Shown: positions 36,974 through 47,966, numbered from the stretch's first letter. The stretch is DNA of 64,000 nt from Escherichia coli (GCF_003334255.1 NZ_QOWU01000013.1), one strand, 5' to 3'. Notes: a model not told the origin generated them from the letters alone. Made by a program: numbers and translations.

Positions 36974-36991
36974 TTTTGGATGATGGATGAT

Positions 36992-37022
36992 GGCCGCCAT
37001 GTGGCGGCCTGAATTATTTTTT
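36992..37022 (+). terminator. rho-independent terminator after yjiA
   Basis: GGCCGCCA/TGGCGGCC stem followed by ATTATTTTTT. Confidence 0.6.
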
Positions 37023-37316
37023 GTTCTGATCGCGCAGCATCGCTTCACGTAAAATTGCGTTCAGGCGAGTTTGATAGCCTTTACCAGGTCGCTTCAGCCA
37101 TTCCATCACATCAGCATCAATACGCACCGAAGCCTGGGTTTTCAATGGCCGATAAAACTTACCGCGTTCTGCGTTAGACCATTGCTCATCGCTGGAAGGT
37201 GGGATATCGCTGTAATCAATCTCTTCGTCGGATTTATTCGCCAGCGCCTTCAATTCGGCCTCATGCTGCACATCGAGTGTAGAGGAGGTCCCTCGTTTAT
37301 GTTTAACCATGCTCAT
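37014..37316 (-). CDS. BrnA-like antitoxin (CopG/RHH-type, DUF4415-like)
   Basis: About 100-aa ORF MSMVKHKRGTSSTLDVQHEAELKALANKSDEEIDYSDIPP... whose ATG overlaps the stop of the upstream DUF497 ORF. Confidence 0.6.
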   Translation of the reverse strand: MSMVKHKRGTSSTLDVQHEAELKALANKSDEEIDYSDIPPSSDEQWSNAERGKFYRPLKTQASVRIDADVMEWLKRPGKGYQTRLNAILREAMLRDQNKK

Positions 37317-37599
37317 AGCGACTCCTCTCTTTACGATCTGCTTTTCGTGCACTGATGATTCGAATAATTTCATTTCCGCTTTCGAAACGGATGGTATGCG
37401 CAACCAGAATAACCACGATACCGTGAACCACGCCGATAGTCTGCCAGCGATACTCACCGTTTTCTATGCGATCTTGCTGTGACAAATGTTGTGGATCATC
37501 AAACACCAACACCGCATCTTCAAAGCGGATGCCATGTTTCACCCGATTACTTTTGGCCTTGTTTGCATCCCATTCAAACTCCATTGGCATAGTTGCCAT
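37303..37599 (-). CDS. BrnT-like toxin (DUF497 ribonuclease fold)
   Basis: MATMPMEFEWDANKAKSNRVKHGIRFEDAVLVFDDP... pattern typical of DUF497; start choice (37599, 37590 or 37584) uncertain. Confidence 0.6.
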   Translation of the reverse strand: MATMPMEFEWDANKAKSNRVKHGIRFEDAVLVFDDPQHLSQQDRIENGEYRWQTIGVVHGIVVILVAHTIRFESGNEIIRIISARKADRKERSRYEHG

Positions 37600-37605
37600 C
37601 CCTAA

Positions 37606-37617
37606 TTGTATATACAA
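37606..37617. promoter_or_regulatory. perfect 12-bp palindrome immediately upstream of the brnT-like gene (candidate operator / -10)
   Basis: TTGTATATACAA is its own reverse complement. Confidence 0.4.
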
Positions 37618-37786
37618 AAATGTATCTACAATTATTCTGCAATTATAGCGTTGATGTTGGAAATAGCATCACGTTTTGGATAATCAACCATGAAATTGAC
37701 AATGAGTAAGTTGGACTTGATTCATCCAATAGAATTTCTCGCCTGACATGGCACACTAAACACCTCGCTGTCGTTAAGGGATTACC

Positions 37787-38953
37787 GTGAAAAACTATAA
37801 AGTTATTACCCCGCTTTTTCCTACCTATGCACAGGTTAAAGCTATGATGAAAGCCGTCTCAGGCTATTCCCTGAAAGCGGTACGCAATATGATTACCGCC
37901 ATTCACGAGCAAACCGGTACGCCGCAAAAACCCGTTGACTGGTCGGAACCCGACCTGTGGATCAGCGAGCGCTTAACGGGTGAAGATGCCGACATCGCCC
38001 GTCGTATTTGGGATACCGATAATCACATCTTGAACCCGCGCCACAGCTACGGCTGCTACTTATTCCTCAACTATCCCCAGTTTGATCTGATGGAAAGCAC
38101 ACCAGATGATACCTGGCAGCCCACCTCGCACGGGCAAAAATTCCTGCAAGATGACGAAAAAACGCTGCGTTCACTGGACGATCAGGAAGGCATTCTGCAA
38201 CTTCTTGAACTATTAGCTGGCCGCGAAATGTCGCGCCGCGCCGATTTATTGCCGGAATGGCAGGCCTTTTTGCATCAGCATTCGAAATTCGCGTCTGCAA
38301 GTTCAGTGAAAAGCACGCTCTACTCCCGTCTCTATAACCTTATCGACCGTGACATGGTTAACCGTGAAGGCATGAGCTATCGCATCACCGATACCGGGCG
38401 CGCCTGACTTGGAAAAGCGTTACCTGCACGAAAAAGCGATCCGCGTAAAGAGCTGTTGGAAGCGGTAAAACGCTATAACGAACAGCAAAAAGAGCTGCTG
38501 CGCGAACAAATCAGCACGATGAACCCGTACAAATTTGAACAACTGGTCGGTCAATTACTGGAAGCAATGGGCTACGAGCAGGTCGAAGTGACCAAAGCCT
38601 CTGGCGATAAAGGCGTGGACGTGATTGGTCAGGTGCAGGTCGGCATCACCACCATTACAGAAGTGGTGCAGGTCAAAAGAATGCAGAACACTATCACTCG
38701 CCCGTATATCGACCAGTTGCGCGGGGCGTTGCCTTACCACAAAGCCATTCGCGGTACGCTCATCACCACCGGGAAATTTGCGGCGAAATGTGCAGAAGCG
38801 GCGCTCTTTCCGGGTGCCGCGCCCATTACGCTTATCGACGGCGATCGTTTACTGGAACTGTTAATCGAAAATAACGTCGGCATTCGCCGCAGCAATGCAG
38901 TGGAATTGCTGGATGTAGATTTGCAGTTGTTTGATGAGCTGGAGATGGATTAA
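37787..38953 (+). pseudogene. Mrr-family type IV restriction endonuclease homolog (N-terminal winged-helix plus C-terminal Mrr_cat), interrupted by one in-frame TGA
   Basis: Track ORFs 37787..38407 and 38456..38953 are in the same frame (38456-37787 = 669 = 3 x 223), separated only by TGA at 38405..38407; the C-terminal part carries GDKGVDVIG...VVQVKRMQNTITRP resembling K-12 Mrr GDGGIDGVI...VQAKRWQNTVGRP. Confidence 0.6.
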
Positions 38954-45929: not shown

Positions 45930-45970
45930 GTTTCTCTCCCCTTCCCCATACGGGAAGGGAAATTGCCCCC

Positions 45971-46135
45971 TCACTCCACATCCTCCCTGCGTAACCCGAT
46001 ATCCCTCAACCGCTCATCACTCATCTGCTGTAACACCCGCCGGGCCTGCATTTGCCGCCGCCAACGCCTCACCGCCTGCCAGAGTTGCACGAAGCCGATA
46101 AACGGCGCGTTGGCTTTGTTTTCGTGAAATTCCAT
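45971..46135 (-). CDS. yjiS: DUF1127 small protein
   Basis: Not in the ORF track (54 aa): minus-strand ATG at 46135 after GAGGAGG RBS gives MEFHENKANAPFIGFVQLWQAVRRWRRQMQARRVLQQMSDERLRDIGLRREDVE. Confidence 0.8.
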   Translation of the reverse strand: MEFHENKANAPFIGFVQLWQAVRRWRRQMQARRVLQQMSDERLRDIGLRREDVE

Positions 46136-46311
46136 CTGCTGCCTCCTCATCTTTCAGAGGCTTCATCATCCGCCTTCTGGCAGTTCACAATACAGATGCA
46201 AATATTAGTTTTATTTAACATACAGACAGGTTAAAACAGCATCTGCATCCGGTTTTTTAGCCTCATCTGTACCGGTTTTTCTCTCTGTATGGTCCAAATA
46301 AGGAATACAGC

Positions 46312-47724
46312 ATGACGCGTTATCAACATCTGGCAACTCTGCTTGCCGAGCGGATTGAGCAAGGGCTGTATCGTCACGGGGAGAAATTGCCGTCGGTGCG
46401 CAGCTTAAGTCAGGAGCACGGCGTCAGCATCAGCACCGTGCAGCAGGCGTATCAGACGCTGGAGACGATGAAGCTCATCACTCCGCAGCCGCGTTCGGGG
46501 TATTTTGTCGCACAACGTAAAGCCCAGCCGCCAGTGCCGCCGATGACGCGTCCGGTGCAGCGCCCGGTGGAAATTACCCAGTGGGATCAGGTGCTGGATA
46601 TGCTGGAGGCGCATAGCGACAGTTCCATTGTTCCGTTAAGCAAAAGCACGCCGGATGTCGAAACGCCCAGCCTGAAACCGCTCTGGCGGGAGCTAAGCCG
46701 GGTGGTGCAGCATAATCTGCAAACCGTTCTCGGTTATGACTTGTTAGCCGGTCAGCGAGTGTTGCGGGAGCAGATTGCCCGCCTGATGCTCGACAGTGGC
46801 TCGGTGGTCACCGCCGATGACATCATCATCACCAGCGGCTGCCATAACTCGATGTCGCTGGCGTTAATGGCGGTGTGTAAACCGGGCGATATTGTCGCGG
46901 TCGAATCCCCCTGTTATTACGGTTCGATGCAGATGCTGCGTGGCATGGGCGTGAAAGTGATTGAAATCCCAACCGATCCAGAAACAGGCATCAGCGTTGA
47001 AGCGCTGGAACTGGCGCTGGAACAGTGGCCGATTAAAGGCATCATTCTGGTGCCAAACTGTAATAATCCGCTGGGATTTATTATGCCGGACGCGCGCAAA
47101 CGGGCCGTTCTCTCTCTCGCTCAGCGTCATGATATTGTGATTTTTGAAGATGATGTCTACGGCGAACTGGCAACGGAGTATCCGCGCCCGCGGACCATTC
47201 ATTCCTGGGATATCGACGGGCGAGTGCTGTTGTGCAGCTCGTTCAGTAAAAGCATTGCACCTGGCCTGCGCGTGGGTTGGGTCGCACCGGGGCGTTATCA
47301 CGATAAACTGATGCATATGAAATACGCCATCAGCAGCTTTAATGTGCCGTCCACGCAAATGGCGGCGGCAACGTTTGTGCTGGAAGGTCACTATCATCGC
47401 CATATCCGGCGGATGCGGCAGACTTATCAGCGCAATCTGGCACTTTATACCTGCTGGATACGGGAATATTTTCCCTGCGAAATCTGTATTACGCGCCCGA
47501 AAGGCGGATTTTTACTGTGGATAGAATTGCCTGAACAGGTCGATATGGTCTGCGTCGCGCGGCAGCTGTGCCGCATGAAAATCCAGGTGGCGGCAGGCTC
47601 GATTTTCTCGGCTTCCGGCAAATACCGTAATTGTCTGCGCATCAACTGCGCTTTGCCGCTCAGCGAAACCTATCGCGAAGCACTGAAGCAAATTGGCGAA
47701 GCCGTGTATCGGGCAATGGAATGA
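46312..47724 (+). CDS. yjiR: MocR-like regulator: GntR HTH fused to aminotransferase (PLP) domain
   Basis: 470-aa ORF with N-terminal GntR HTH (LPSVRSLSQEHGVSISTVQQAY) and class I aminotransferase-like C-terminus. Confidence 0.85.
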   Translation: MTRYQHLATLLAERIEQGLYRHGEKLPSVRSLSQEHGVSISTVQQAYQTLETMKLITPQPRSGYFVAQRKAQPPVPPMTRPVQRPVEITQWDQVLDMLEAHSDSSIVPLSKSTPDVETPSLKPLWRELSRVVQHNLQTVLGYDLLAGQRVLREQIARLMLDSGSVVTADDIIITSGCHNSMSLALMAVCKPGDIVAVESPCYYGSMQMLRGMGVKVIEIPTDPETGISVEALELALEQWPIKGIILVPNCNNPLGFIMPDARKRAVLSLAQRHDIVIFEDDVYGELATEYPRPRTIHSWDIDGRVLLCSSFSKSIAPGLRVGWVAPGRYHDKLMHMKYAISSFNVPSTQMAAATFVLEGHYHRHIRRMRQTYQRNLALYTCWIREYFPCEICITRPKGGFLLWIELPEQVDMVCVARQLCRMKIQVAAGSIFSASGKYRNCLRINCALPLSETYREALKQIGEAVYRAME

Positions 47725-47836
47725 ATTCGAAATAGTGGCGAGCCCCCTGATTTCCTCTCACGAATAGCGTGTGACTCGTTTTATCTTTGCAGGGTCATCT
47801 CCACGTTCCAGCATGGCTTAGGCAAAATGCGCTTTG

Positions 47837-47940
47837 TTCATGCCGGATGCCATGTGAACGCCTTACCAAGTCTACAAAATCTTTAAAGTTCAATATAGTG
47901 AATGGGTTATGTAGACCTGATAAGCGTAGCACATCAGGCT
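47837..47940. repeat. degenerate REP pair
   Basis: GCCGGATGCCATGTGAACGCCTTACCAAGTCTAC ... GTAGACCTGATAAGCGTAGCACATCAGGC. Confidence 0.6.
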
Positions 47941-47966
47941 GCTTTGCGTTTGTCATCAGTCTCTGA

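Follow-up and report, generated by a model that had tools for sequence, protein, structure and literature searches.

The immigration control region of an Escherichia coli lineage carries a known cassette of type I restriction, Mrr-like nuclease and toxin–antitoxin genes

Gene content and organization of the region

We analysed a stretch of Escherichia coli DNA of 64,000 nucleotides (GCF_003334255.1, NZ_QOWU01000013.1), referred to here as the window, with emphasis on the variable interval between yjiA and yjiR (positions 36,974–47,966). The yjiA–yjiS interval contains a brnT/brnA pair, an Mrr-domain gene broken by a stop codon, the type I restriction-modification (R-M) genes hsdM–hsdS–hsdR and the symR/symE module, with yjiS directly after (Table 1). 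We consider it very probable that this region is the immigration control region (ICR, hotspot 36) filled with a standard interchangeable cassette, which comprises brnT/brnA, an Mrr-domain type IV-like nuclease, an R-M system whose family is allelic to EcoKI and best taken as type ID, and symR/symE joined to yjiS. Gene names were mapped over from the RefSeq annotation of ~100% identical genomes and checked with hidden Markov model (HMM) libraries; each gene of the cassette was confirmed by an HMM or a covariance model.

In the annotation of K-12 MG1655, read in the orientation of the window, the order is yjiA, mrr (minus strand), hsdR, hsdM, hsdS, symR/symE, mcrB, mcrC, yjiV, yjiT, yjiS and yjiR. 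A preliminary description, made from the sequence alone, had listed the K-12 set as mrr, hsdR-hsdM-hsdS, symE, mcrB, mcrC, yjiV, yjiT and yjiS and had proposed that the content here departs from it. The list matches the MG1655 annotation, and annotation and blastn breakpoints agree with the proposed departure in every item listed. Homology to MG1655 (blastn) stops exactly at the yjiA stop codon (36973), comes back over symR/symE (45459–45908, 92.9% identity) and returns a second time from 45966 (96.3% identity). The 8.5 kb between 36974 and 45458 stands in place of K-12 mrr-hsdRMS, and the 7.6 kb mcrB-mcrC-yjiV-yjiT segment of K-12 is reduced to 57 bp. Neither an open reading frame (ORF) nor a PADLOC match for mcrB or mcrC was found in the window, which also lacks yjiV and yjiT; only these 57 bp lie between the symE homology and yjiS, as expected from the earlier statement that yjiS directly follows symE/symR without McrBC-like ORFs. 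The comparison of base composition with the flanks that had also been suggested gave a GC content of 46.1% for the replaced block and 37.7% for hsdS, against 52–53% in the flanks.

The anchors of the ICR are present, with yjiA on one side and yjiS/yjiR through yjiN on the other, as judged from the annotation of identical genomes and from K-12 homology on both sides. Together with the variable content, they identify the site as the classic hypervariable defence hotspot that the preliminary description had named. The EcoKI locus of K-12 (type IA, with mrr and mcrBC) shares with the window the site, the flanking genes, the general type I mechanism and the symR/symE module (91% protein identity); its hsd genes are arranged R-M-S, whereas those of the window are arranged M-S-R, and it contains mcrBC, yjiV and yjiT and lacks brnTA, the reverse of the window. 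A scan for defence genes with PADLOC, likewise suggested earlier, matched hsdM, hsdS, hsdR and the Mrr-like gene.

At the left end of the cassette, brnT and brnA are adjacent genes that overlap by 14 nt, the toxin gene first, and matches to both Pfam families (PF04365 and PF14384) bear out the earlier identification of a BrnT/BrnA-like pair. The region from which brnT and the Mrr-like gene diverge contains two weak promoter-like sites on the plus strand (37593–37621 and 37657–37684), both of them consensus matches only.

The type I restriction-modification genes

PADLOC and NCBIfam confirmed all three type I subunits, in agreement with the earlier recognition of a different type I operon in M-S-R order. 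The 11-nt overlap of hsdM with hsdS, together with the terminator-like hairpin at 42026–42045, suggests that hsdM-hsdS and hsdR form separate transcription units.

Relative to EcoKI (type IA), HsdM has 24% identity, and HsdR aligns at 25% identity over 219 residues only, in the helicase motifs. Comparison with the type IB system of CFT073 gave 26.5% identity for HsdM and no significant match for HsdR or HsdS, and subunit sizes and gene order also differ. Against the EcoR124 chains in the PDB (type IC), HsdR scored 87 bits, over residues 144–511 only, and HsdM 136 bits. Within families, by comparison, HsdM and HsdR are 99% identical between UTI89 and MG1655 for type IA (PMC8287963) and more than 90% identical for type IB (PMC2481252). 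Because identity within a family is 90–99%, and the values obtained lie far below that level, types IA, IB and IC were ruled out. By elimination, the system is best assigned to type ID, since a census of 9,040 enterobacterial loci found IA, IB and ID to be the only families at the ICR (PMC12707154). The type ID systems StySBLI, EcoR9I and KpnAI fit the hsd genes of the window in their allelic location at the ICR and in a sequence distinct from types IA, IB and IC. The clusters at 90% identity to which HsdM and HsdR belong include proteins of Salmonella, Klebsiella, Citrobacter and Enterobacter, and thus span Escherichia, Salmonella and Klebsiella. What defines a type I family is described as the exchange of subunits (complementation) among its members (PMC12707154, section 22).

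HsdS has the layout TRD1–conserved–TRD2–conserved (TRD, target recognition domain); in an alignment of four alleles, residues 178–264 and 435–463 are conserved and the rest is variable. TRD1 (residues 26–164; 40701–41117) shares 36% identity with TRD2 of EcoBI, a type IA enzyme, a relationship that crosses families and swaps position, and TRD2 is 24% identical to EcoBI TRD1. EcoBI TRD2 reads TGCT/AGCA, and the site of EcoR9I is given as AGCA(N6)TGA (PMC12707154, Table 1). The similarities suggest an enzyme predicted to read EcoBI-like half-sites with a shorter spacer, and they would fit AGCA-N6-T(G/C)A as predicted target, which resembles the site of EcoR9I. Of this target, the likeness to the EcoBI TRDs itself points to no more than an AGCA half-site; in type ID enzymes, six base pairs separate the two methylated adenines. 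A literature string search for AGCA-N6-TGA/TCA and their complements returned no paper giving a methylation motif, and a literature search for the name EcoR9I found it only in the 2025 review (PMC12707154).

Several points weigh against the assignment and its functional reading. Type ID was reached by elimination and from a literature census; the division into two transcription units is proposed from a consensus hairpin; and activity of the type I system in this strain is a prediction from its genes. An old UniProt entry, Q9ZEK7 ('HsdS protein'), has exactly the HsdS sequence of the window and is suspected to be S.EcoR9I. The system could belong to a family other than ID, such as IE or an unnamed one, in which only the M-S-R order and the position on the chromosome coincide with those of type ID. 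We regard this as unlikely. In its favour is the missing direct comparison of HsdM and HsdR with the type ID prototypes; the best relative of HsdM among solved structures is archaeal (3khk, 454 bits), which says nothing on enteric families. The census, however, places ID at 12% of loci, near the 13–16% found in the E. coli genomes here. Membership of HsdM and HsdR in 90%-identity clusters with Salmonella, Klebsiella, Citrobacter and Enterobacter is also what would be expected of the StySBLI/KpnAI/EcoR9I family, and the identical UniProt HsdS is an E. coli entry from the 1990s.

The interrupted Mrr-like nuclease gene

The gene preceding hsdM is a single reading frame with one in-frame stop, produced, relative to intact alleles, by a change of the Trp207 codon from TGG to TGA (38405–38407). 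PADLOC profile PDLC04796 matches both halves (E = 9.5e-100 and 3e-95), and RefSeq annotates the gene in identical genomes as a 'restriction endonuclease' pseudogene with an internal stop. Pfam places Mrr_cat (PF04471) at residues 243–359 (E = 3.8e-29) and gives a weak winged-helix signal at 151–208; the first 150 residues have no Pfam match. The split and the Mrr-family membership proposed in the preliminary description therefore stand, although the cause is a nonsense codon and not a frameshift, and the gene is not an orthologue of K-12 mrr. Orthology was rejected on the grounds that EcoKMrr of K-12 is 31% identical in the nuclease domain only and that K-12 mrr lies on the opposite strand.

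The stop-bearing allele is a minority form. Its exact 49-mer occurs in 34 complete E. coli genomes, including S88 and ATCC 11775, and 389 genomes are one base off, most likely because they retain the TGG codon seen in the alleles sampled. Alleles in the rest of the carriers are more divergent. An intact gene of 388 codons is found in other strains with the same cassette (USMARC-51408, JJ2434 and E-1246). Comparison with three intact alleles taken as samples showed differences at 29–36 synonymous and 3–8 non-synonymous codons, and the inactivation therefore looks recent. The change at Trp207 is the only lineage-specific feature of the region.

As in EcoKMrr and other type IV (modification-dependent) nucleases of the Mrr_cat family, the protein has a C-terminal PD-(D/E)xK domain and an N-terminal part of helical or winged-helix, DNA-binding type; it differs from them in a longer, unannotated N-terminal region and in the stop that interrupts the copy in the window. 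The conserved D...Q-x-K catalytic positions are invariant across 48 homologues. Homologues are widespread: in Thiocystis minor the gene is placed between the hsdR and hsdM genes of a different type I system (extracted locus 6122–11418), in Modicisalibacter it follows the BREX genes pglY, pglZ and brxD and a helicase gene (extracted locus 1–10167), and in Serratia fonticola it stands beside a gene for an ScoMcrA-like HNH nuclease and a type I system (extracted locus 8011–17187). A sequence search of the PDB with the intact protein gave no match. A structural model (mean predicted local distance difference test score, 85) produced matches with low template-modelling scores, extending over several domains, to FokI, MspJI, AspBHI and the recognition domain of BpuJI. 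The modelled fold is consistent with helical or winged-helix DNA-binding modules and a PD-(D/E)xK nuclease, and with nothing more specific; with matches of this kind, no particular reader domain is claimed for the protein.

An alternative is that the split gene is not dead, either because read-through of UGA-C by tRNA-Trp restores Trp207 or because the halves act as separate DNA-binding and nuclease polypeptides. In E. coli, UGA followed by C is a weak termination context, and natural misreading inserts tryptophan, here the original residue. The stop in the gene is indeed TGA followed by C, it sits at the boundary between the winged-helix-like region and Mrr_cat, and the remainder of the gene is undamaged, with three amino-acid differences from the USMARC-51408 allele, the stop among them. 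Read-through would supply a trickle of full-length, wild-type nuclease, amounting to a reduced dose and not a knockout, and a low dose might be tolerated alongside DNA modification, whether resident or incoming, that would come under attack if the gene were fully expressed. We think either form of this explanation quite unlikely. A change from TGG to TGA is the commonest route to losing a tryptophan codon, and the following C is ancestral, so the context gives no sign of selection. The TGA allele is confined to 34 of ~880 carriers, the C-terminal fragment has neither an ATG start nor an evident ribosome-binding site (the next in-frame start is TTG at 38456), and RefSeq labels the gene a pseudogene. 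Recent loss of the nuclease remains the preferred explanation.

Distribution of the cassette among E. coli genomes

Comparison with 5,426 complete E. coli genomes showed that the arrangement is neither rare nor new. Strain G1/2 matches positions 36500–48500 at 100% identity along all 12,001 bases; ATCC 11775, the type strain, differs at three positions in these 12 kb, and S88 is also ~100% identical. In 703 genomes, at least 80% of the 12 kb query was found in one place, and 880 genomes have the Mrr-like gene (80% or more of that query), counts that contradict confinement of the layout to one clone. The intergenic DNA on the brnT side was matched in 2,001 genomes, ~1,100 of which have it without the Mrr-like gene.

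Other strains illustrate how the site varies. USMARC-51408, JJ2434 and E-1246, taken as samples, have the same cassette with other hsdS alleles; in some of them brnT is decayed, and in one a GmrSD gene lies 3' of symE. In CFT073, a type IB system arranged R-M-S is accompanied by a DUF262 protein, and REL606 has a K-12-like set of type IA, mrr and mcrBC genes. In a strain of sequence type 131 (ST131; NZ_OX637959.1, extracted locus 8415–10185), brnA-brnT is followed by IS1, a fragment of a dienelactone hydrolase gene and then mdtM; the restriction cassette, symE, yjiS, yjiR and rpn are all missing, in a deletion that extends to mdtM. Across K-12, CFT073, REL606, ST131 and the three strains with the same cassette, the variation thus involves whole cassettes, restriction genes included.

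This variability has been described. According to a 2025 review (PMC12707154, section 60), the ICR holds type IA, IB or ID hsd genes, each with its own type IV family, and further carries brnAT, symE/symR and rpn. The region occupies the same site as the ICR of Raleigh and colleagues (E. coli defence hotspot 36; PMC12707154), with anchors from yjiA to yjiS/yjiR/rpn/mdtM/yjiN, and follows the same logic of alternative cassettes, in which type I hsd genes are combined with a type IV nuclease and toxin–antitoxin pairs. From the described variant bearing type ID it differs in nothing substantial, apart from the lineage-specific nonsense mutation in the accompanying nuclease gene. The window is one instance of an ICR variant already in the literature, and its arrangement is common and annotated. 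The novelty implied by calling the region rearranged consequently falls away, the same content and order being found in ATCC 11775, in S88, in 703 of the 5,426 genomes and in the review. The preliminary description had itself named a common ancestral arrangement, identical to reference strains, as what would speak against it; the arrangement is indeed common and identical to reference strains, but 'ancestral' does not describe one of several alternative cassettes.

Search for additional elements

The preliminary description had further held that an unassigned ORF or intergenic structure in the region might be a defence component. Scans with Rfam over 36.9–48.1 kb, at the gathering threshold and at a permissive E-value, returned only symR and two sub-threshold matches to archaeal snoRNAs, which were taken as chance. 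A search for repeats and invertible hsdS segments, as in phase variation, gave short matches at chance level and no invertible segment; a consensus scan gave promoter and terminator counts at or below the shuffled expectation; and seven unannotated ORFs, located in spacers or antisense to genes, matched no NCBIfam family. No gap between genes is longer than 215 bp, and these gaps are taken up by hairpins, by promoters of divergent genes and, together with its LexA-box-like sequence, by the region that controls symR/symE. The scans for such a component thus yielded symR and ordinary hairpins.

That the region is a new rearrangement, specific to the strain and concealing a defence component not yet described, is on this evidence very unlikely, and the idea is already largely refuted. 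It draws on the standing of the region as a recognised defence hotspot and on the Mrr-like gene, which belongs only to a 'candidate' PADLOC system (PDC-S02) and encodes the N-terminal 150 residues without a Pfam match. Opposed to it are the identical DNA in reference strains, a layout common to hundreds of genomes and described in PMC12707154, gaps accounted for by promoters, hairpins and symR, unannotated ORFs without family matches, and repeats at chance level. Even less credence is due to errors of sequencing or assembly as the source of the internal stop and of the single-base differences that set the window apart from the type strain. One of these differences is a homopolymer length (C6 against C5 at 45485–45490), a typical long-read error type. 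The C6 tract, however, is common to at least strain G1/2, which aligned at 100% along all 12,001 bases, and error was rejected as the origin of the stop because the exact stop-bearing 49-mer is present in 34 independent complete genomes, S88 and ATCC 11775 among them.

The symE module, flanking features and other parts of the window

SymE is 91% identical to its K-12 counterpart, and the last few codons differ, where K-12 homology breaks (45908); symR and symE overlap at 45591–45596. The LexA-box-like sequence 5' of symE is a putative site of LexA action. Just 5' of this box, in the symE promoter region, lies the C6 tract (45485–45490), one base longer than in the type strain; the shorter tract is kept in K-12 and three other alleles. 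The extra base may change the spacing within the promoter, or it may be a sequencing error of the homopolymer common to a few assemblies. On the right flank, the Rpn-family gene adjoining yjiR is intact (314 aa), and rpnD, its counterpart in K-12, carries a pseudogene annotation.

Table 1. Features of the ICR and its immediate flanks in the window
Feature	Position	Strand	Basis
yjiA, GTPase, conserved left ICR anchor	36017..36973	+	RefSeq annotation of identical genomes; blastn against MG1655
GC-rich terminator-like hairpin between convergent yjiA and brnA	36992..37009		Consensus scan; 7 pairs, all G-C
brnA, antitoxin of type II toxin–antitoxin pair	37014..37316	-	Pfam BrnA_antitoxin PF14384, E = 3e-17; RefSeq name
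brnT, ribonuclease toxin of BrnTA	37303..37590	-	Pfam BrnT_toxin PF04365, E = 7.9e-25
Divergent brnT/Mrr-like intergenic region	37591..37786		Conserved in 2,001 genomes (query 37600–37773)
Mrr-domain nuclease pseudogene, 388 aa when intact, PADLOC candidate PDC-S02	37787..38953	+	PADLOC, Pfam; RefSeq 'internal stop'
hsdM, type I methyltransferase subunit, 539 aa	39017..40636	+	PADLOC MTase_I, E = 3.3e-194
hsdS, specificity subunit, 463 aa, GC 37.7%	40626..42017	+	PADLOC Specificity_I, E = 2.3e-168
Terminator-like hairpin 3' of hsdS	42026..42045	+	Consensus scan; 7 pairs, 6 G-C, then TTTCTGG
hsdR, type I restriction/translocase subunit, 1,087 aa	42112..45375	+	PADLOC REase_I, 1,718 bits; TIGR00348, 465 bits (cut-off 284.55)
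Repetitive extragenic palindrome (REP)-like hairpin GGCCGGATA / TATCCGGCC, directly 3' of hsdR, within the segment without K-12 counterpart	45383..45408		Read from sequence
LexA-box-like sequence TACTG-N10-CAGGT, upstream of symE	45496..45515	+	Sequence; comparison with K-12 and other alleles
symR, antisense RNA antitoxin, across symE start codon	45520..45596	-	Rfam RF01809, 95.3 bits (gathering score 61)
symE, SOS-induced toxin-like protein	45591..45929	+	NCBIfam NF010128, 219 bits (cut-off 132); BLASTP
57-bp joint in place of K-12 mcrB-mcrC-yjiV-yjiT, with CCCTTCCC/GGGAAGGG hairpin at 45939–45959	45909..45965		blastn against K-12; sequence
yjiS (DUF1127), first gene of conserved right flank	45971..46135	-	RefSeq annotation; K-12 homology from 45966
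yjiR, pyridoxal phosphate-dependent aminotransferase family/GntR-type fusion, conserved flank	46312..47724	+	RefSeq annotation
Rpn-family gene (recombination-promoting nuclease)	47967..48911	-	RefSeq annotation

Outside the ICR, homology to K-12 runs no further than 54212 in the stretch compared, and 54213–64000 forms a second variable spot nearby. For an ORF of 697 aa there (54550–56643), the annotation of the type strain gives a pentapeptide-repeat protein, and iatD, an inverse autotransporter gene, starts at about 59199. In the left part of the window, yjjJ (1782–3113, minus strand), whose annotation is that of a toxin kinase of the HipA family, is one more gene of toxin type nearby and has no connection with the ICR finding. 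At 10477–10858 on the minus strand, four tandem copies ~101 nt apart match Rfam naRNA4, a nucleoid-associated RNA of REP/bacterial interspersed mosaic element type (75–80 bits). Three tandem tRNA-Leu genes are annotated in the type strain at 18481–18803, of which the Rfam scan at gathering threshold gave the third only (18717–18800).

Proposed function and implications

The working of the cassette can be outlined from established knowledge of these protein families. HsdM and HsdS, translationally coupled, would form an M2S methyltransferase that marks bipartite target sites of the host, and HsdR, probably transcribed separately, would join the methyltransferase to translocate and cut DNA whose sites are unmethylated. 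The Mrr-like nuclease would attack modified DNA and is presumably inactivated in this lineage by the single TGG-to-TGA change at Trp207. BrnTA and SymE/SymR would act as toxin–antitoxin modules. Differences from strain to strain would arise by recombination in the conserved flanks, replacing whole cassettes.

Beyond correct annotation, the importance of the region is small: it is the filling of a long-studied ICR in one E. coli lineage. This lineage carries a type I family other than that of EcoKI, appears to have recently lost the linked Mrr-like nuclease and has two toxin–antitoxin modules. Knowledge of the hsd family and of the likely target is of practical use in transformation and phage work with S88, the type strain and the lineage as a whole. 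The one loose thread is the PDC-S02 nuclease family, whose genes accompany those of R-M and BREX systems in several taxa.

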